Source: a virus. Taken from it: a DNA stretch of 64,000 bases. Numbering within the stretch: the first letter of the stretch is position 1; every line of letters starts with the position of its first letter. The stretch covers positions 1 to 64,000 of the IMG/VR virus record IMGVR_UViG_3300027631_000002; one strand, 5' to 3'. The notes under the pieces are model-generated. The model was not told the DNA's origin. It searched no databases and worked only from the letters and a program-made list of their open reading frames with translations. Shown one piece after another: positions 2,517 to 40,898 of this stretch. Made by a program: the position numbers and the translations under genes.

Positions 2517-3974
2517 TTATTTTTCTAATTTCAAAATTTCTGAACTATTTTTTCTAATCTCTTTACATAATTCTTTATTATTATTTAAAGATTGTCCATA
2601 AGAAGGAATCATTTCTTTTAATTTTTCTGTCCAATCTTCATTCTTAAAACATTTCTCAATTAGATCTAACATAATAGATGTTGCTGTTGATGCACCGGGA
2701 GAGGCACCCAATAAACCAGCAATTGTTCCATCAGCAGAGGTAATAACTTCTGTACCAAACTCTAATATACCTTTTCCTTCACCATCTTTTTTAATAACCT
2801 GAACTCTTTGACCCGCGGTTTCTAAAATCCAATCTTTTGATTTAGCAGTTGGAACATATTCTCTTAAAACCATCATTCTATCTGCTCTAGATTGACGAAC
2901 TTGGTCAATTAGATACTTTGTTAGTGGAATGTTTTTTAAGCCAGCACCCATCATTGGGATGATGTTATTCAATCTAATTGATGTAAATAGATCCCAATAA
3001 GAACCATTTTTAAGAAATTTTGTTGAAAATCCAGCATAAGGTCCAAATAGTAACTCTTTTTTACCATTTATCATACGACTGTCTATGTGAGGAACAGACA
3101 TCGGTGGTGCACCAACTCCGGCTTTACCATATACTTTAGCATTGTGTTTTTCGATAACTTCTAAATTAGTACAACGTAACCATTGACCACTAACTGGAAA
3201 TCCACCATAACCTTCGATTTCTGGAATACCAGATTTTTCTAATAAATGAAGTGAACCACCACCTGCACCAATAAATACAAAGTCTGATTCTATTTTTCTT
3301 TTTTCATTGGTAGATAAGTCTTTAACTTTAATTACCCATTTACCTTCTTTATTTTTTAATTTTTTTACTTCGTGATTAAAATGTAGTTCTACACCATCTT
3401 GTGATTTAAGATAATCAAACATACTTCTGGTTAGATTACCAAAATTCACGTCAGTACCAATTTCATTTTTAGTCGCTGCAACTTTTTGATTTTCTTTACG
3501 ACCTTCCATAACAAGTGGTGCCCAAGATTTGATTGTATCAAAATCTTCTGTGTATTCCATATCTTGAAATAAAGTATTTGGTTTTAAAGTGCTATATCTT
3601 GTTTTTAGGAAGTTTACATTTTCTTGACCCCATACAAAACTCATATGTGGACTTTGTTTAATAAAAAATTCTGGTTTAACAATTAGGTTATTCTTAACTA
3701 AATAAGACCAAAATTGTTTAGATACTTCATACTGTTCGGCGATTTGAATTGCTTTATCTGGATTTATTGAACCATCTGGATTTTGTGGTGTATAGTTTAA
3801 TTCACAGAACGCTGAGTGACCAGTACCTGCATTATTCCAAGCATCGGAACTTTCTGCGGCTGCAGAGTCTAATCTTTCAAAGATTTGTATATTTAATTCA
3901 GGATCTAATTGTTTAAGGATTGTTCCTAATGTGGCACTCATAATTCCAGCACCGATAAGTGTTATATTTTTCAT
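2517..3974 (-). CDS. mqo: malate:quinone oxidoreductase
   Basis: LIGAGIMSATL FAD motif, ESSDAWNNAGTGHSAFCELNYTP, GAPPMSVPHID, AGQRVQVIK and LLGASPGAST. Confidence 0.97.
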   Translation of the reverse strand: MKNITLIGAGIMSATLGTILKQLDPELNIQIFERLDSAAAESSDAWNNAGTGHSAFCELNYTPQNPDGSINPDKAIQIAEQYEVSKQFWSYLVKNNLIVKPEFFIKQSPHMSFVWGQENVNFLKTRYSTLKPNTLFQDMEYTEDFDTIKSWAPLVMEGRKENQKVAATKNEIGTDVNFGNLTRSMFDYLKSQDGVELHFNHEVKKLKNKEGKWVIKVKDLSTNEKRKIESDFVFIGAGGGSLHLLEKSGIPEIEGYGGFPVSGQWLRCTNLEVIEKHNAKVYGKAGVGAPPMSVPHIDSRMINGKKELLFGPYAGFSTKFLKNGSYWDLFTSIRLNNIIPMMGAGLKNIPLTKYLIDQVRQSRADRMMVLREYVPTAKSKDWILETAGQRVQVIKKDGEGKGILEFGTEVITSADGTIAGLLGASPGASTATSIMLDLIEKCFKNEDWTEKLKEMIPSYGQSLNNNKELCKEIRKNSSEILKLEK

Positions 3975-16362: not shown

Positions 16363-17640
16363 TTATCTTAATATTGTTTGTTTTCTGTCAGGTCCAACAG
16401 AAACTATCTTAATTGGTGTTTCTAATTCTTTTTCTATAAACTCAATATATTCCTTTAGTTCTTCGGGTAAATTATTAAAGTCTTTAATATTAGTTATATC
16501 TTCTGACCAGCCATCAAATCCTATATAAATAGGTTCTAAGTTTTCTGGCTCAATGTTATAAGGAAAGTGTGTAATTATCTCACCTTTATATTTATAACCA
16601 GTACAAATCATTATTTTATCAAATCCAGACAGTACATCACCTTTCATCATCATAAGTTCTGTTACACCATTTATTTGACAAGAATATTTAAGAGCAACTA
16701 AATCTAACCAACCACATCTTCTAGCTCTACCAGTAACAGAACCAAATTCGTTACCAATTTTTGCCATTTGTTCACCTACCTCATCAAATAATTCTGTAGG
16801 AAATGGTCCACTTCCTACTCTTGTTGTATAAGCTTTGAAAATACCATAAACATCTTTGATTTTATTAGGTGCAATACCCAATCCTGTACAAGCACCAGCT
16901 GCAGTTGTATTAGAAGAAGTAACAAATGGATAAGTTCCAAAATCAACATCTAATAATGAACCTTGTGCACCTTCACATAAAATAGATTTACCTTCTTTTT
17001 GAGCTTGATGTAAATACTCTTCACTATCAATAAAAGTAAATTGTCTTAGATAAGCAAGTGCATCCAAGAATTCTTCTTCCATATCTTCATAATTGGTGTT
17101 AAATTGTTTGATAACACTCCAATCTATTAGTTCATCATGTTTCTTTTCTAACTTAGTAAATCTTTTGTGAAAGTCTGGTAATTCTAAGTCACCAACTCTG
17201 ATTCCGTTTCTACCAGTTTTATCCATATAAGTAGGTCCAATTCCTTTAAGAGTAGAACCAATTTTATCTTTACCTTTTGCAGTTTCTGAGGTAGCATCTA
17301 AAAGTTTATGAGTAGGTAGAATTAAGTGAGCTTTTCTTGATATAAGTAATCTTTTTTTAACATCCATATCAAATTTTGCTAGAGCTTCTACTTCTTGTCT
17401 GAATACAACAGGATCAAGTACAACACCATTACCAATTATATTTATTGTGTCTTTATGAAAGATACCAGAAGGTATAGTTCTAAGTACGTGTTTTCTTCCT
17501 TCAAATAGAATTGTATGTCCAGAATTTGGACCACCTTGAAATCTTGCTATTATATCATATTTTGAAGTCATTACATCAATTATCTTGCCTTTTCCACAAT
17601 CTCCCCAACTTAATCCAACTAAAACGTCTACTTTACTCAT
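16363..17640 (-). CDS. purA: adenylosuccinate synthetase
   Basis: GLSWGDCGKGK, RFQGGPNSGHT, EGAQGSLLDVDFGTYPFVTSS, TTRVGSGPFPTE and VTGRARRCGWLD. Confidence 0.97.
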   Translation of the reverse strand: MSKVDVLVGLSWGDCGKGKIIDVMTSKYDIIARFQGGPNSGHTILFEGRKHVLRTIPSGIFHKDTINIIGNGVVLDPVVFRQEVEALAKFDMDVKKRLLISRKAHLILPTHKLLDATSETAKGKDKIGSTLKGIGPTYMDKTGRNGIRVGDLELPDFHKRFTKLEKKHDELIDWSVIKQFNTNYEDMEEEFLDALAYLRQFTFIDSEEYLHQAQKEGKSILCEGAQGSLLDVDFGTYPFVTSSNTTAAGACTGLGIAPNKIKDVYGIFKAYTTRVGSGPFPTELFDEVGEQMAKIGNEFGSVTGRARRCGWLDLVALKYSCQINGVTELMMMKGDVLSGFDKIMICTGYKYKGEIITHFPYNIEPENLEPIYIGFDGWSEDITNIKDFNNLPEELKEYIEFIEKELETPIKIVSVGPDRKQTILR

Positions 17641-19383: not shown

Positions 19384-20265
19384 TTAGTTTATTGCTAATC
19401 TTTTTGTTGATGTTTTACCATCTTCTGTAATTTTTACGATGTACATACCTGTTACTAAACTACTTACGTTTAATTGACTTTGTATATTTTCTACTAAAAC
19501 TTTTTTACCAATCATATCATAAATCTCTACATCTTTTGTAGAATTTAGATCAGTTGTGATATTTAAAATATTTTTTGTTGGATTTGGATAAACTTGTAAT
19601 CCAGAAATTTGATTTTGATTAGTAGATAGTACTAATGCACCATTTGATACGGTAAAGTTGTCGATTCTCCAAGCACCAGCCGCAGAATAGTTTGCAGGTG
19701 TTGTTGCAGCATAACCAACTGCAGAGTAGTCTGTTCCTGTTGGATTAAAAATTGATACTATTCTGAAAGCAAATCCAGATTGATTACTAGCATTAGTTGG
19801 CATTACAAGTGTAACCATTGGAGTTGAGGTAAATGAATTAGTCAATAGTCCACCATTATTACCGAATACTGTCCAAGTTGTTCCGCCATTTATACTATAT
19901 TCATATTGTTGAAATCTTGATGAAGTATTTGAACCTCTTGGATCAAAAGTTACATTAATTGCATCTGTGAATCCAAGTGTACTAACTGCAAATTGAAATC
20001 CAGCAGTACCTGATCCTGTTAGTGTTAAAGGAAATGTTTTAATGCTATACCCAAGATTGGTAGTTGCTGTACCATTACCTAATGGCATAGAACCAGCTGT
20101 ACTAAGATTATCAACAACTCCACCTATCGGTGTGAATGTTCCTGTTCCAGTAGTAGGTAACATAGCAGTTGCTGGGATTGCATTGTCAAAATTCCATTGT
20201 GTGATGTTTTGACCAAAAGAAATTGTTGTCATAAGTAAGACAACTAAAGTTAAAAGTTTTTTCAT
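19384..20265 (-). CDS. type IX secretion system (T9SS) type A CTD-containing protein
   Basis: Signal peptide plus C-terminal VYPNPTKNILNI...IYDMIGKKV...LNVSSLVTGMYIVKI...STKRLAIN. Confidence 0.92.
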   Translation of the reverse strand: MKKLLTLVVLLMTTISFGQNITQWNFDNAIPATAMLPTTGTGTFTPIGGVVDNLSTAGSMPLGNGTATTNLGYSIKTFPLTLTGSGTAGFQFAVSTLGFTDAINVTFDPRGSNTSSRFQQYEYSINGGTTWTVFGNNGGLLTNSFTSTPMVTLVMPTNASNQSGFAFRIVSIFNPTGTDYSAVGYAATTPANYSAAGAWRIDNFTVSNGALVLSTNQNQISGLQVYPNPTKNILNITTDLNSTKDVEIYDMIGKKVLVENIQSQLNVSSLVTGMYIVKITEDGKTSTKRLAIN

Positions 20266-20399: not shown

Positions 20400-21235
20400 A
20401 AGGGGCTGAGATTATGCCATCTTGTAAGAATCTTTTGAAGAATTATTGTTTCTCTTCGTATCCACAATCTTTTGGATTGTAATTCTCATTGAGGATTAGT
20501 TAGACTAATCACTTCTTGAGGCTTCAACTACTCTCTTATTACTCAACTCTCTTCAAACTTGCGGTCTGATTAAGGGTTCGACCCCTTAGAGGTTTTTGGC
20601 AAGAATACGTCTCAACTTGCGGTCTTGACGTGCACTGGACGGCCCAGTACTATGTACTCAACTTTCGTTGAAGCCTGACAGACACTTTTGCTTTTTAGTT
20701 TTTAAATTTTACTTCAAATGTAAATTGCTTTAGTGTTGTGGATATGTCGAAGAAGTGGTCTGTCGTAAGCTTCGTTATCTTTTGAACAACGAAATACTAA
20801 ACTCCTTCGTGAAGCCTCCCAGCCTCCATATTTTAAGACAACTTCAAACTAACACCTTGGTAGATGTTTAGTAGGGATAGTAGCAGCACCACCTGTTCTC
20901 TACCATTACCTTTCGGTTTTAAGTCACCTCTTATATTGGAAGTCGCAATCATATGGTTGGAGCCATACTTCTCGCAAAAATCCTATGAGTTATTCTTATT
21001 GGTGTTCCCACCTCAACCGGACAATCCACATTGCCGCGGTTACTCAACCACTTTCTCTACAGTGTTACCCTCGATAGTAAAGGTTGCGTAATATCTCACT
21101 TGTGTACTCGAGCTCTTACAAGCCGCAGAACCATTTAACGTTGATTCCACTTTATCCTAAGTTTCCCTAGGTTATTTAACGACGATACACCGCCGATTAT
21201 CATTTTACTAGCCACCGAAGTGATTAGTTGGATAA
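20400..21235 (-). ncRNA. large structured ncRNA, GOLLD-like (~830 nt)
   Basis: GC-elevated, no convincing ORF, many minus-strand hairpins with GNRA/UUCG loops (CCTAGG-GAAA-CTTAGG, TCAAC-GAAA-GTTGA, ACC-GAAA-GGT, CAC-TTCG-GTG, two GCAA loops). Adjacent to the tRNA cluster. Confidence 0.6.
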
Positions 21236-21256: not shown

Positions 21257-21340
21257 AATCTTTTTGTTTTTATTATAGTACAAAGATAATATAAGTTGTT
21301 TAAACTACCAAAATTATTTTTACTTTTTTTAAAAAAAATT

Positions 21341-21441
21341 AAGACCCTATTACAGGCAGTTGATTACCCCATTCTATTTGGACTTGGATGTTATAGCTTT
21401 CACTAATAAATTAGCTAGAATGCGTCAGCTCATTGAGTCTT
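21341..21441 (-). ncRNA. unassigned ~100-nt structured RNA
   Basis: Closing helix AAGACTC/GGGTCTT, internal CATTCT/AGAATG and TAGCT/AGCTA pairings. Confidence 0.4.
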
Positions 21442-21449
21442 AATTTTAG

Positions 21450-21546
21450 TAGTCTGTACGGGATTCGAACCCGTGTGACCAGCCGCCCCGAAGGACCGCT
21501 ACCCGTCCTGACCCACCGAAGTGAGTATCCGCTAGACGAACAGACC
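21450..21546 (-). ncRNA. tRNA-Glu-scaffold RNA 1 (anticodon arm capped by UUCG, D-loop hairpin insertion)
   Basis: GGTCTGT/ACAGACT-A acceptor, ACGGG-TTCGAAT-CCCGT T-arm, D-loop insert ACTCAC-TTCG-GTGGGT, anticodon arm GTCC-TTCG-GGGC. Confidence 0.85.
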
Positions 21547-21577
21547 GATAAGTAGTTGCCTACCTAGGTTTTATTTG

Positions 21578-21666
21578 TAGTCTGTACGGGATTCGAACCC
21601 GCGTTACCTCCTTCGAAGGGAGACGTCCTGACCCACCGAGGTGAGTATCCACTAGACGAACAGACC
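21578..21666 (-). tRNA. tRNA-Glu-scaffold RNA 2 with TCG (Arg) anticodon and D-loop hairpin insertion
   Basis: Same acceptor, near-identical T-arm. Anticodon arm TCTCC-CTTCGAA-GGAGG. Insert ACTCAC-CTCG-GTGGGT. Confidence 0.8.
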
Positions 21667-21749
21667 GAAGTGTCGTGTTTAATTACACTAAAGATGAATA
21701 CTTAAAAGTACCAACTTGTCAACATTACAGAAATGACATTTACACTTAG

Positions 21750-21822
21750 TAGCGGGAGAAGGACTCGAACCTCCGACCTTATGGTTATGAGCCACACGAG
21801 CTGCCAACTGCTCTATCCCGCG
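21750..21822 (-). tRNA. tRNA-Met(CAT), initiator-like
   Basis: C1:T72 mismatch, A11:U24, loop CTCATAA. Only two of the three initiator G-C pairs (TGTGG/CCATA). Confidence 0.88.
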
Positions 21823-21835
21823 ATATATTTTGTTG

Positions 21836-21951
21836 TAGTCTGTACGGGATTCGAACCCGCGTTCCTCTCTCGTGACTAAGAGAATGTCCTGTTTACCTTA
21901 CTTTAATGCCGAAGCTTTTTGTTCAGTAAACGTCCACTAGACGAACAGACC
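21836..21951 (-). ncRNA. tRNA-Glu-scaffold RNA 3 (43-nt D-loop insertion, enlarged anticodon loop containing GTC)
   Basis: Same acceptor, near-identical T-arm. Insert GTTTAC...GC-TTCG-GC...GTAAAC. Arm TTCTC-TTAGTCACGA-GAGAG. Confidence 0.82.
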
Positions 21952-21995
21952 GAAGAGTGTCGGAATTAAAACGCGCATCACTCTTATTTGTTTGA

Positions 21996-22027
21996 CAAAG
22001 ATACGGTGACTTTTTTAATCTACCAAA
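21996..22027 (-). promoter_or_regulatory. Bacteroidota sigma-A-type promoter (repeated unit)
   Basis: TTTG-N20-TATCTTTG. Near-identical copies at 22294, 22611, 22690, 22818 and 34685, and a looser one at 21281. Most share TTTGGTAGATTA. Confidence 0.85.
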
Positions 22028-22123
22028 TCTTTTTTAATTTATTTTGTACCCCAGCCAGGATTTTCACCTGTATCTCTGTTTTAGTTAAAACAATGACTTT
22101 ATTCATCCAATGGAGTGTATTTG

Positions 22124-22224
22124 TAGTCTGTAAGGGATTCGAACCCATGTTTTCTCCTTCAATGCCATTACGCAGTAATCGGGAAATGTCCTATCACCGA
22201 AGTGAACCGCTAGACGAACAGACC
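22124..22224 (-). ncRNA. tRNA-Glu-scaffold RNA 4 (24-nt anticodon loop with internal hairpin)
   Basis: Same acceptor. Insert TCAC-TTCG-GTGA. Arm TTTCC-[CGATTACTGCGTAATGGCATTGAA]-GGAGA. Confidence 0.82.
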
Positions 22225-22344
22225 GAAAGAGTTGTGCTATCGTACACCACTAGGCCGGAATTTCACACGACACCTACTCTTATTTTATTTTGACAAAGAT
22301 ACGACGACTTTTTTAATCTAACAAATCTTTTTTCATTTATTTTG

Positions 22345-22483
22345 ACCGCATTGAGGGAGTCGAACCCAAATGTAAATACATTTACTAGTATTTATATTTA
22401 TAATAACAAGATTAGAACCTATCCCGACTTCATACTAGAATATTAAATTATTATCTAGTTTACTAACTACTTGTTCAACGCGA
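22345..22483 (-). pseudogene. degenerate tRNA-like element with long AT-rich interior
   Basis: Acceptor TCGCGTT/AATGCGG and GGG-TTCGACT-CCC T-arm core. D and anticodon arms are not canonical. Confidence 0.45.
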
Positions 22484-22488
22484 ATGTG

Positions 22489-22593
22489 TAGTCTGTAAGG
22501 GATTCGAACCCATGTTTACAATCTCTCCATATACCAGGATATTTGAGATTGTCGTCCTATCACCAAAGTGATATACCGCTAGACGAACAGACC
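22489..22593 (-). ncRNA. tRNA-Glu-scaffold RNA 5 (8-bp anticodon stem, 19-nt loop)
   Basis: Same acceptor. Insert ATCAC-TTTG-GTGAT. Arm ACAATCTC-[19 nt]-GAGATTGT. Confidence 0.82.
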
Positions 22594-22892
22594 ATTTTAT
22601 TTTTGTTTGACAAAGATAAGGACAATTTTTTAATCTACCAAATCTTTTTTTTCAATCTTTTTGAGAGTTTGTTTCTCTCATTTGTTTTACAAAGATACGG
22701 TGACTTTTTTAATCTACCAAATCTTTTTTAATTTTTTTTATTTTCTTCCCCAGATCATATATCCGATTAAAATCCCAACTATTATACCTGAACCCATATT
22801 ATTTCTTTATTAGAGTACAAAGATACAAAAGTTTTCTAATCTACCAAATTTTTTTAGAAAAAAAAATGATAAAATAATTTAATATATACATT

Positions 22893-23988: not shown

Positions 23989-25053
23989 TTATCCTGAGAT
24001 ATATCTAAATAATAGAAATAATCCACAAGAAACTGCAATTGTTACTGGTAGTGTAAGAATCCATGCAGATAATATTGTTTTTATTGTTTTTGTTTTTAAA
24101 TTATTTACTCCTTTTGATGCAACCATTGATCCTGCAATACCAGAACTTAATATGTGTGTTGTTGATACTGGTAGTTTAAATGCGGTTGATAATCCAATTG
24201 TAATTGCTGCAACTAATTCAGAAGAAGCTCCTTGTGCATAAGTTAAATGTTGTTTACCAATTTTCTCTCCAATTGTAACTACAATTCTTTTCCATCCAAT
24301 CATGGTTCCTAATCCTAATGAAGTAGCAATCATCCACATAACCCACATTGGTGGATTAGAAACATTGTCTAATGTAAAAGTAAGTGGTAAGAAAGCCATA
24401 AGAATAATCATAGCTAAACCGATTCCTTTTTGACCATCATTTCTTCCGTGAAAGAATGAAACTAACGTACAAGTGGATATAAGTATTGTTCTAATCCAAA
24501 ATGGTGGTGGGTTATCTCCATTGGGTTCTTCAAATACGTCTTTTCTTTTAACAACCTTGTTCAAAAACCACATTAAAAGAATTACCATAGTAAATCCTAA
24601 TAAAGGTGAGAAAGCTAGAGCTTTTCCTATATCAATAATTTTGCCCCAATTAGTATAATCTACTCCTGTTATAATAGAATAACCAACAGAAACTCCAATA
24701 ATTGATCCAATTAAGGTATGAGAAGAAGAGGCAGGGATTCCTTTATACCAAGTTGCTAAGTTCCAAAAAATAGCAGTAATTAAGATTGACATAACCATAC
24801 CCATCGTATGATAGATGTTACTATCTGTAAGTATTTCTTTAGGAATAAGTGTTACGATACTTAATGCAACACCTACACCACCAGTAATGAGACCGAGGAA
24901 ATTCATAATTCCTGACCAAACAACTGCTTGTTTAGGCTTTAAAGATTTTGTATAGATTACAGTGGCAACTGCATTTGCGGTATCGTGAAATCCATTGACG
25001 AATTCAAAGATACAAACCGCGAGTAAAGCTAAAATTAGCAAAGTTGTTAACAT
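23989..25053 (-). CDS. pitA: PiT-family inorganic phosphate transporter
   Basis: NGFHDTANAVAT, GIPASSSHTLIG, HGRNDGQK and PVSTTHILSSGIAG. Confidence 0.93.
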   Translation of the reverse strand: MLTTLLILALLAVCIFEFVNGFHDTANAVATVIYTKSLKPKQAVVWSGIMNFLGLITGGVGVALSIVTLIPKEILTDSNIYHTMGMVMSILITAIFWNLATWYKGIPASSSHTLIGSIIGVSVGYSIITGVDYTNWGKIIDIGKALAFSPLLGFTMVILLMWFLNKVVKRKDVFEEPNGDNPPPFWIRTILISTCTLVSFFHGRNDGQKGIGLAMIILMAFLPLTFTLDNVSNPPMWVMWMIATSLGLGTMIGWKRIVVTIGEKIGKQHLTYAQGASSELVAAITIGLSTAFKLPVSTTHILSSGIAGSMVASKGVNNLKTKTIKTILSAWILTLPVTIAVSCGLFLLFRYISG

Positions 25054-35497: not shown

Positions 35498-36757
35498 TTA
35501 GTTTAATTTTGTTCGGATTCCAGGCATGTAAATCTCAATCAATTGTATCAATTCTTCTTTACATTCCGTAGTCAATGATTTATTTTTATTTTGGTTCATC
35601 AAAATCATAAATGAACTTACTACTTTATTAAATTTAAAAGCATCTGTAAAGTCAAATATAGTTTTCTTAAATGATTCTATATCAATAGTTTCTTCACCTG
35701 TTTTATCCAACCACGTTTTCATTCTATTTATAAATCTTCTAATTCCAATTATATTTTCATCAGACCAAGAACCACCATCAAAGTAGTGACCAATAAACAT
35801 CAAGTAAAATCTAATTTCATCTGGATCATAACCATCTAAACTAACTACATTTCCTTTAGACTTAGACATTTTTTCTCCTTCACTCAATATCATTCCTTGG
35901 TGTACCAATTTAGTAATTGGTTCTTCAAAGTCAATAAAGCCAATATCATACAAAAACATTGTAATAAATCTAATATAAATCAAGTGCATACAAGCATGTT
36001 CTGATCCACCAACATACAAATCAACTGGTTTTGGTTTGATACCTTTCATCAAGCAGTATATAATAGTGTAGATAGAACTATCTACGAACGTATCCATTGT
36101 ATCAGTTTCTCCTTCAATAGGAATAGGACAACCCCAACTTCTTTGTCTTGATACACACCAGTCGTGTTGGTTTTCCAACCAATTTCTTTGTGACTTTATT
36201 GTAGATTCTGGAAAGTCAATCTTATCCAAACCGGCAATCAATCTATCTTTATAGTCGGTAATTTTGAAATACCATTGATTCAATGTTTTCTTCTCTACTT
36301 CTGTAGAACATCTTTCACATTTACCTTCTTTTACTTGTTCTCTAGCCAATACAGTTTCACAACTATTACAGAAGTCAACTTCACCATCTTTTTTATAAGC
36401 CAAATCTTTATCATACAATTGTTTAAACAACCATTGTGTGTACTCAATATAGTTGGGATCTGAAGTAATCAACATTTCCTCATATTGAGTATTCATGTTA
36501 TCCATCTGTATTCTAAAATTTTCTATATTCTCGTAGGTAACTTCTCTTGGATCTCTACCTACTTTCTTAGCATAGTTTTCCGCTGGCAATCCAAATGAAT
36601 CATATCCAAATGGTTGAAAAACCGTTTCGCCTTTGTATCTCAAGTATCTGCAGTAGCTATCCATAATCGCATAGTTATACCAATGTCCACAGTGCAAACC
36701 ACTACCTGAAGGATATGGAAACATCACAGTTACATATTTATAGTTGTTATCATTCAT
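35498..36757 (-). CDS. leuS: minimal leucyl-tRNA synthetase (419 aa, no CP1 editing domain)
   Basis: MFPYPSGSGLHCGH, GYDSFGLPAEN, Zn knuckle, QRNWL directly followed by HDWCVSRQRSWG, DTMDTFVDSS, YVGGSEHACMHL and KMSKSKGN. Confidence 0.92.
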   Translation of the reverse strand: MNDNNYKYVTVMFPYPSGSGLHCGHWYNYAIMDSYCRYLRYKGETVFQPFGYDSFGLPAENYAKKVGRDPREVTYENIENFRIQMDNMNTQYEEMLITSDPNYIEYTQWLFKQLYDKDLAYKKDGEVDFCNSCETVLAREQVKEGKCERCSTEVEKKTLNQWYFKITDYKDRLIAGLDKIDFPESTIKSQRNWLENQHDWCVSRQRSWGCPIPIEGETDTMDTFVDSSIYTIIYCLMKGIKPKPVDLYVGGSEHACMHLIYIRFITMFLYDIGFIDFEEPITKLVHQGMILSEGEKMSKSKGNVVSLDGYDPDEIRFYLMFIGHYFDGGSWSDENIIGIRRFINRMKTWLDKTGEETIDIESFKKTIFDFTDAFKFNKVVSSFMILMNQNKNKSLTTECKEELIQLIEIYMPGIRTKLN

Positions 36758-40043: not shown

Positions 40044-40898
40044 TTATACTACATCTTGCATTAATTCAAATGCTTCTTTTTCTATTTCTTTTTGAAGTAA
40101 CTCCATAGCTCTTGCTAATCTTGTTAAACCAATTCCTGCACCAAATCTTGGAAAGAAGTCAAATTTTAAGAAATCTTCTAATTCTTTTTCTACTCTTTCT
40201 TTTCCAAATAATTCAAATAGTTTTTCAGAATATCCACCATTTTCTATTGTATAAAACATTTTTCTCATAGAGTCAACTTCACAACTTCTTTCTGCCGCAC
40301 CTATTGTTTCTTGTCCATATAATATTACATCAACTTTGTTGAATAAATCATCTTGTTGATTTTTCATATTCCAAAATGGATTAGTTCTTAATGGAAAGTT
40401 TTGAAGAGAAACGCAATGACTTACTTCATTCCACATTTTACTTTCATGTTCATTTTCTAAAATTGATACGTCTCCATATTCTTTACAAGTTTTATTGTAA
40501 TCCATTTCAACAGGTGATCCAAATCCTAAATACTCAAGAAGTTCTTTTTCTAATAGAATTAAATCTTTATATTTACCTTTTGATTCAAACTCAAACATTG
40601 GAAAGATTAGTTCATGTCTTCCAGGAATTGGATTTTTTTCTGCTCTGTAGCTTGTAGATACACAGAAAACTCCTTCCCAAGTAGGATTTTTTAGAAGTTC
40701 ATACTCGAGCCACATTTGCCCTGTTTGTGGTAAAGGCCATATCTCACCATTGTATTCAAAGGTTGATACTGAGTGTGGGTTTTCACAAGCTGCTAAAATT
40801 GATAGTCTAGATTGTGTTGGTACTTCTACGAAGTTTTTTTCCAAAAAAAATTCTCTTAGTTTCTGAACTAGAGAATTGTACATTAAAGTGTTTGTCAT
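40044..40898 (-). CDS. class IIb (Asn/Asp/Lys) aaRS-like catalytic domain without the OB-fold anticodon domain
   Basis: LREFF..KNFVEVPT motif 1, LPQTGQMWLE, SYRAE...RH...F.MFEFE motif 2, GQETIGAAER and FGAGIGLTRL motif 3. Confidence 0.8.
   Translation of the reverse strand: MTNTLMYNSLVQKLREFFLEKNFVEVPTQSRLSILAACENPHSVSTFEYNGEIWPLPQTGQMWLEYELLKNPTWEGVFCVSTSYRAEKNPIPGRHELIFPMFEFESKGKYKDLILLEKELLEYLGFGSPVEMDYNKTCKEYGDVSILENEHESKMWNEVSHCVSLQNFPLRTNPFWNMKNQQDDLFNKVDVILYGQETIGAAERSCEVDSMRKMFYTIENGGYSEKLFELFGKERVEKELEDFLKFDFFPRFGAGIGLTRLARAMELLQKEIEKEAFELMQDVV

Follow-up and report, generated by a model that had tools for sequence, protein, structure and literature searches.

Non-coding RNAs built on a tRNA plan include the Y RNAs, in which a long Ro-binding stem is combined with a rearranged tRNA module. 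Phage tRNAs are known to act against tRNA-cleaving defences (bioRxiv 10.1101/2023.03.15.532788; PMC11455837). GOLLD RNA reportedly occurs close to tRNA islands and downstream of tRNA-Met, and its linker sometimes contains tRNAs (PMC12286853). For GluRS, the pairs U11-A24 and U13-G22-A46 together with a missing residue 47 are the major identity elements outside the anticodon, and in E. coli the strongest determinants lie in the anticodon loop (PMC9976931). tRNA mimics as such are already known; the phage tRNA-Glu mimic family reported here matches no Rfam family, since no Rfam 15 family except tRNA scored above its gathering threshold for the mimics, and a literature search, mostly of papers outside subscription, gave no description of the family or its partners. 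The RNA family is apparently undescribed.

The mimics were found in the window, a 64,000-nt stretch of viral DNA (positions 1 to 64,000 of the IMG/VR record IMGVR_UViG_3300027631_000002). The whole record is linear, 179,626 bp long, with 29% G+C and an estimated completeness of about 30%. It carries a T4-like Gp23 capsid gene, and the source of the window is a fragment of a T4-like jumbo phage. A protein with a T9SS sorting domain encoded in the record and promoter motifs of the form TTTG-N19-21-TAnnTTTG point to a Bacteroidota host. The uncultured phage genome LR745206.1 (634,780 bp) encodes a mini-GluRS 85% identical to that of the window; Al-Shayeb et al. placed their genomes larger than 634 kb with Bacteroidetes hosts (PMC7162821). 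Metabolic and surface genes of host type lie in the window at 2517-3974, 16363-17640, 19384-20265 and 23989-25053 (malate:quinone oxidoreductase, PurA, the T9SS sorting-domain protein and a PHO4 phosphate transporter). Genes for RNA repair and translation control, encoding Pnkp, an RNA ligase, a SpoT-type HD hydrolase, a Pth2-domain protein and NusA, were observed at 27260-29131, 32830-34337 and 62639-63871; the NusA gene fits the boxA-like motif ahead of GOLLD.

The sequence-only reading of the window had proposed five tRNA-Glu-like loci, and all five proved real, at the coordinates it gave and on the minus strand (Table 1). The first 15 nt of the mimics occur exactly five times in the record, also when two mismatches are allowed. 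The common tRNA-Glu-type body was confirmed, with 46-50 of 50 body positions identical between copies, as were the hairpins inserted after G18G19, present in all five copies and capped in copies 1-5 by UUUG, UUCG, UUCG (within a larger stem), CUCG and UUCG. With these inserts of 14-43 nt, the D loop is of abnormal size for tRNA-Glu. CCA is encoded in none of the five copies. ARAGORN in default mode called none of them and reported three ordinary tRNAs only in the window (Cys and two CAU); the Rfam tRNA model exceeded its threshold for one of the five, copy 1. The anticodon arms all differ, as had been claimed: copy 1 has 8 bp and a 19-nt loop, copy 2 a 24-nt loop containing an inner hairpin, copy 3 a GUC-containing loop (7 bp + 8 nt) and copy 5 a long stem with a UUCG cap. 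The arm of copy 4, however, is fully canonical (5 bp and a 7-nt loop, UCG), and so a non-decoding geometry does not hold for all five.

Table 1. Features of the mimic-GOLLD region and the mini-GluRS gene in the window (numbering from the first nucleotide of the window).
Feature	Coordinates	Strand	Remarks
GOLLD RNA	20403..21230	-	Rfam 3′ domain 20403-20809, 322.7 bits; 5′ end inferred
GOLLD promoter motif	21281..21312	-	boxA-like motif at 21254-21244
Long closed stem, then U run	21331..21447	-	after copy 5
Mimic copy 5	21450..21546	-	19-nt insert 21528-21510; 25-nt arm
Leader hairpin	21549..21566	-	5′ of copy 5
Mimic copy 4	21578..21666	-	19-nt insert 21648-21630; 17-nt arm
Canonical tRNA-Met(CAU)	21749..21822	-	within the array
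Mimic copy 3	21836..21951	-	43-nt insert 21933-21891; 20-nt arm
Closed leader hairpin	21953..21985	-	5′ of copy 3
Promoter motif	21996..22027	-	ahead of leader 3, copy 3, tRNA-Met and copies 4 and 5
Degenerate cloverleaf	22047..22116	-	after copy 2; altered T loop; overlooked by the sequence-only reading
Mimic copy 2	22124..22224	-	14-nt insert 22206-22193; 34-nt arm
Closed leader hairpin	22227..22281	-	5′ of copy 2
Promoter motif	22294..22325	-	precedes leader 2 and copy 2
Second kind of tRNA-like RNA	22347..22481	-	directly 3′ of copy 1; overlooked by the sequence-only reading
Mimic copy 1	22489..22593	-	17-nt D-loop insert 22575-22559; 35-nt arm 22552-22518
Promoter motif	22611..22642	-	ahead of copy 1; more at 22848-22818 and 22721-22690
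Mini glutamyl-tRNA synthetase	29208..30044	-	278 aa; catalytic core without anticodon-binding domains

Of the 21 matches to the Bacteroidota-type promoter motif in the 180-kb record, six fall inside the 1.6 kb that holds the mimics: three before copy 1, one each before copies 2 and 3, and one for GOLLD; their promoter function is assigned from the known consensus. A sigma-70 promoter scan, whose model does not cover Bacteroidota promoters, gave hits at chance level. Of the closed hairpins 5′ of several bodies, also part of the earlier reading, those of copies 2, 3 and 5 are clear, and that of copy 4 is weaker. The leader hairpin of copy 2 is 78-90% conserved in eight other loci, where it precedes different mimic types. 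The tRNA-like RNA next to copy 1 has an acceptor-like stem, a T arm and a multi-hairpin core, its ends are closed on folding, and it is conserved at 91-99% in four related loci (L004, L006, L007 and L043); the degenerate cloverleaf has a single homolog, in L038 (77%). Judged by its fold, the stem after copy 5 is a possible end of the array transcript; a terminator scan made no call there. A hydrophobic small ORF of 19 codons lies behind the first promoter motif (22797-22738, minus strand) and is conserved in L007, L029 and L043. Elsewhere in the window, a short tRNA-like element (34666-34601, minus strand), whose T arm is well formed and whose D and anticodon region is reduced, has its own promoter motif (34715-34685) and lies 0.8 kb downstream of a LeuRS-like gene. 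Another non-canonical tRNA-like RNA, with its own promoter motif, stands first in the arrays at L003:960-1050 and L004:9060-9150; it is missing from the window, although L003 and L004 are close relatives.

Relatives were first searched for with the exact 5′ body pattern and a gap of 12-40 nt. This pattern matched 4 viral and 39 metagenome stretches and, among 185,579 prokaryote genomes, a single 5.9-kb MAG contig that also carries GOLLD and is probably mis-binned phage DNA. Judged by this distribution of sequence matches, the mimic family is restricted to phages. A second pattern, blind to the acceptor stem, added members with different acceptor sequences. After cleaning, the family comprised 93 distinct members on about 50 contigs, with up to 11 per contig; the canonical tRNA-Glu genes L054, L098 and L106 were left out of the 93. 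A covariance model run on whole genomes added further members, three in LR745206.1, two in G007 and two in G018. The wider family expected across phage genomes was thus recovered by both kinds of search. A BLAST search against isolate phages returned partial tRNA-Glu or tRNA-Met matches only, with no full member, and no cultured host-phage system carrying mimics was found, LR745206.1 being uncultured. Several mimics in multi-copy contigs have a promoter motif of their own. We regard it as very probable that the family is real and under selection. Its recurrence in about 50 other phage contigs, together with the lack of a usable anticodon in four of the five window copies, indicates tRNA look-alikes kept for a job besides codon reading. 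One further element escaped the search patterns: a 174-nt Glu-body element directly after a boxA-like motif (L020:1718-1891, plus strand), in which the D insert is very long, the arm measures 43 nt and the T loop is altered.

Arms with 5 bp and a 7-nt loop occur in 8 of the 93 members, window copy 4 among them, and none of these reads UUC; their anticodons are UCG (three), UAG, CUC and UUU with C37 (three). YUC at positions 34-36 followed by a purine at 37 in such an arm was found in none of the five window copies and in one family member (L138, CUC). The commonest arm type is 18-21 nt long, with a stem of 6-7 bp and a loop of 4-5 nt, and it has UUC at the tip in 35 of 42 cases. Copy 4 (UCG, A20) may represent a tRNA of Arg type. 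Collapsed-arm Glu bodies that lack an insert are present in G006, G019/G020 and G022. Given these insert-less, anticodon-collapsed sister forms in other jumbo phages, loss of decoding is a common theme, and the insert is an addition to it.

Among canonical isotypes Glu was the nearest by far, in agreement with the scaffold named in the earlier reading: scored over body positions against 434 canonical tRNAs of the fetched loci, the mimics reached 57.5 for Glu(UUC), 32.9 for Asp and 4.3 for Arg. Arg ancestry was rejected on its best score of 4.3 against 57.5 for Glu, and the set contained no host Arg-UCG gene. In two phage UCG tRNAs, a Glu-like D arm is combined with acceptors that differ from those of the mimics. 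The canonical tRNA-Glu(UUC) of phage G023 has an acceptor stem and T arm identical to those of copy 5, and the acceptor end of Prevotella tRNA-Glu (G1.U72, G2-C71, U3-A70, A73) is the same as that of the mimics. [quoted passage not shown] Since the search patterns fixed D-arm letters, the invariance of the D arm is partly due to ascertainment, a bias avoided only by the secondary copies and by the covariance-model hits in whole genomes.

Pairing is maintained throughout the molecule. In 50 aligned members, the named tRNA pairs were paired in 95.9% of cases, compared to 81.6% after shuffling and at most 52% when slid. The acceptor stem was 100% paired, with double-sided changes at six of its seven pairs, and pair 51-63 alternates freely among G-C, A-U and U-A. 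Covariation counts are inflated by related sequences; nonetheless, the contrast with the controls is large. The inserts range from 13 to 109 nt across the family, commonly with a UUCG cap, and 74 of 78 distinct ones are more stable than their own dinucleotide shuffles (mean -6.5 vs -2.7 kcal/mol). The insert stem, which nearly always starts 1-3 nt past G19, shows all six pair types at its base. Based on the folding above shuffles, the six pair types and the fixed start, the insert is a structural element of free sequence and length. Covariation of the acceptor, T, anticodon and insert stems speaks against decay, and the earlier argument from maintained pairing is upheld. The cloverleaf core is kept (U8, A14, G15-C48, G18, G19 and the T loop); the pairs of the T stem are of mixed identity and form no consistent EF-Tu antideterminant.

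In the window, the 3′ domain of GOLLD lies 641 nt downstream of copy 5 and a terminator-like hairpin for GOLLD lies at 20369-20339. GOLLD is found on the same strand within about 2.5 kb in 27 of 51 mimic loci, and in 11 of the 14 loci whose flanks extend 2 kb or more on each side. Four distant GOLLD lineages show the adjacency, and at least three changes are forced by well-supported branches of the GOLLD tree, which was midpoint-rooted with partial rows left out. When GOLLD loci were sampled independently by a GOLLD pattern, 1 of 97 had a mimic and 96 had none, and in the complete genomes G006 and G007 mimics are present but GOLLD is absent. The link is therefore one-way, and GOLLD is not required for mimics. 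The separate promoter in the window and the single mimic-bearing locus among the 97 argue against the mimics being part of GOLLD RNA itself. In L244, L269 and L170, the slot right after the GOLLD 3′ end is taken by a collapsed tRNA-like RNA with a different D arm.

The mini-GluRS of the window is one of a large, conserved family of proteins some 275 aa long, on which the literature search found no paper. HIGH- and KMSKS-type motifs are kept, glutamate-site positions are invariant across 30 homologs, and the predicted structure is confidently a GluRS core (pLDDT 90); about 75 residues of the acceptor-binding insertion domain are missing. Mini-GluRS and mimics occur together within the clade of the window (G000-G003, LR745206.1 and G018), and G022 has a collapsed Glu body 0.7 kb away from the enzyme gene. 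Mimics were found without the enzyme in G005 (84% complete), G006 and G007 (both 100%), and the enzyme without mimics in G017 (98% complete) and G013 (89%). As each occurs without the other in near-complete genomes, the enzyme is not an obligate partner, and the dedicated partnership suggested from the sequence alone is weakened. On the minus strand of the window, three synthetase-like proteins are too short for anticodon-binding domains: the GluRS core (29208-30044, 278 aa), a LeuRS-like core (35498-36757, 419 aa) and a class II D/K/N-type core without an NCBIfam name (40044-40898, 284 aa).

On structural grounds, the two places that vary, the elbow and the anticodon arm, would be needed by the ribosome and left untouched by a synthetase core. 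Because the acceptor and D core are kept and the places needed by the ribosome vary, we tentatively favour the view that the mimics are non-decoding RNAs, made in abundance, that serve as tRNA-Glu decoys or as ligands for a protein recognising the tRNA-Glu body, a reading that is quite plausible while falling somewhat short of probable. The five genes are very probably selected members of a phage-restricted, tRNA-Glu-derived family of non-coding RNAs. Strong transcription from a stack of host-type promoters would be followed by RNase P trimming and CCA addition, as for tRNAs, and the RNAs would take on an L-shaped fold. The hairpin at the elbow and the changed anticodon arm may exclude them from the ribosome, and the surface recognised by GluRS-type proteins (G1.U72, G2-C71, A73; U11-A24; U13-G22-A46; no residue 47) would stay intact. 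The putative target is GluRS itself, of the host or the phage, or a host defence enzyme acting on tRNA-Glu or the GluRS-tRNA complex, and the effect may be to protect or redirect glutamate charging during infection. The mimics would then belong to a phage translation counter-defence kit with the RNA ligase, Pnkp, Pth2, the SpoT-type hydrolase, the stripped synthetases and GOLLD. Against this decoy reading, the likeness of the bodies could have come about through paralog homogenisation, and copy 4 and a few other members (UCG, UAG, CUC) look decoding-competent. Since the strongest E. coli determinants are in the anticodon loop, a full-length host GluRS may also bind the mimics poorly. A more elaborate and rather improbable version is a ribosome-independent tRNA-Glu circuit of Bacteroidota jumbo phages, in which the stripped phage GluRS would charge or bind mimics that work with, or load into, a GOLLD nanocage for counter-defence or glutamate delivery.

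The position of the mimics beside GOLLD allows another role, which we consider unlikely though worth weighing: that of tRNA punctuation, with the mimics serving as RNase P and 3′-trimming signals that cut a long non-coding transcript, mature GOLLD and free leader hairpins and spacer RNAs, the dead anticodon preventing mistranslation. Trailer tRNAs in rRNA operons and mascRNA for MALAT1 are analogues. In seven loci or genomes (L001, L013, L024, L028, L042, LR745206.1 and G018), about 6-11 nt separate the 3′ end of GOLLD from the start of a mimic; in the last two, GOLLD has mimics on either side, and in about 12 mimic-free GOLLD loci the same 3′ slot holds a tRNA-Met, a tRNA-Leu or another anticodon-collapsed tRNA-like RNA. 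The recurrence of the link in distant GOLLD lineages and the boxA-like motifs, which make the layout resemble an rRNA operon, also agree with punctuation. This slot pattern supports a processing role in those lineages but not in the window, where all five mimics precede GOLLD, which has a promoter and a terminator to itself. Most sampled GOLLD loci are without mimics, and G006 and G007 have mimics without GOLLD; moreover, a cutting signal has no need of a Glu-specific body or of 5-11 copies under separate promoters, and the elbow hairpin could hamper RNase P. The mimics may instead be dedicated glutamate carriers, charged by the mini-GluRS to provide Glu-RNA for a non-ribosomal reaction such as host tetrapyrrole synthesis or protein glutamylation. 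The retained motifs, glutamate site and core fold of the enzyme, its co-occurrence with mimics and the neighbouring collapsed body in G022 are consistent with this, but the genomes with one partner only and the missing part of the acceptor-binding insertion are not; glutamyl-tRNA reductase (HemA) was not found in the five genomes searched, and the stripped LeuRS and class II core of the window have no matching mimic family. Overall, a carrier function appears improbable.

Still more doubtful is a loop-display library, in which the stable body offers anticodon-like loops of several kinds (Arg UCG, Asp GUC, Thr GGU-like, Leu UAG and shifted Glu UUC) as bait for anticodon nucleases of differing specificity. 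Each arm type of the window is conserved as a separate lineage in related phages, that of copy 1 in L002, L003, L004, L006, L007, L012, L026, L029, L030 and L043, that of copy 2 in L043 and that of copy 3 in L002, L004 and L029; the copy 1 loop retains a 12-nt motif while its flanks change, and UUC lies near the tip in 57 of the 93 arms. This motif has no antisense target in the window's genome. However, most lineages carry one sealed arm in all copies (L017, L020), anticodon nucleases generally require the native loop and its modifications, and chance matches of short loops to anticodon loops come easily. The loop display or cargo of the sequence-only reading is further weakened by insert loops that are mostly generic UUCG caps and by the commonest arm being a sealed stem with a UUC tip, and its anticodon-nuclease decoy by conservation that lies in the acceptor and D core and not in an anticodon loop. 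The proposal that these are intron-containing or decaying tRNA genes, for which we see hardly any chance, draws on the Pnkp and RNA ligase genes of the phage, on the intron mode of ARAGORN, which forces calls on all five, and on L138, with its canonical CUC arm plus insert. Yet the inserts are plain hairpins without a shared splice motif, their removal still leaves non-decoding arms in 85 of 93 members, the forced calls give unrelated isotypes and occur all over the genome, and covariation is strong; this reading is already largely refuted. Equally slight is the prospect that the mimics act as Y RNAs for a Ro60 encoded by the phage. Y-like RNAs have been described from phages (PMC12135203), and Ro60/TROVE genes are present in three of the five genomes checked, namely G005, G007 (about 3 kb from the mimics) and LR745206.1, the genome of the window being represented by 30% only. 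Against it, neither the complete G006 nor this available 30% has a TROVE gene, no Rfam Y RNA matched, and the mimics have ordinary tRNA topology with free acceptor ends and no long Ro-binding stem closing the molecule.

Because tRNA finders miss the mimic genes, a conserved multi-copy phage RNA family has stayed unannotated, even in the published LR745206.1. The family suggests that phages retain tRNA bodies for a non-decoding purpose, which bears on why phages carry tRNA genes. The mimics are also concrete, synthesisable candidates for tests of GOLLD maturation or cargo, and their body is a natural tRNA scaffold tolerating 13-109 nt at the elbow.

Compared to known systems, the mimics share with bacterial and phage tRNA-Glu (RF00005, Bacteroidota type) the acceptor G1.U72, G2-C71 and A73, C9, the D-stem pairs U11-A24 and U13-G22, the 4-nt variable region with A46 and no residue 47, the T arm and the non-encoded CCA. 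They differ in the D-loop hairpin, in an arm that is sealed, lengthened or replaced so that no mimic reads UUC in canonical geometry, and in their tandem arrays. The mini-GluRS resembles GluQ-RS (YadB) as a GluRS paralog of similar size without anticodon-binding domains, but scores far below GluQ-RS cut-offs, is nearer to GltX and is without a large part of the insertion domain. The Y RNAs of bacteria and phages (YrlA type, Ro60 partners) are likewise non-coding tRNA mimics, phage-encoded ones included (PMC12135203; PMC7824862), whereas the phage tRNA-Glu mimics have normal tRNA topology and occur without Ro60. Allo-tRNA, tRNA-Sec and tRNA-Pyl (PMC7609411), as well as viral tRNA-like structures, also combine a tRNA shape with altered arms and are recognised by part of the tRNA machinery; PMC7609411, as far as searched, shows no D-loop hairpin insert and no phage example, and the viral structures are 3′ ends of RNA virus genomes. 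The T5 tRNA-Tyr acting against a retron and tRNA-Lys against PARIS resemble the decoy reading in that phage tRNA genes serve counter-defence, but they are decoding tRNAs that replace a cleaved host tRNA, and most mimics cannot decode. Finally, like the tRNAs associated with GOLLD (RF02032), the mimics adjoin GOLLD on the same strand; unlike those reported tRNAs, which are ordinary, they are non-canonical, lie outside GOLLD in the window and are missing from most GOLLD loci.
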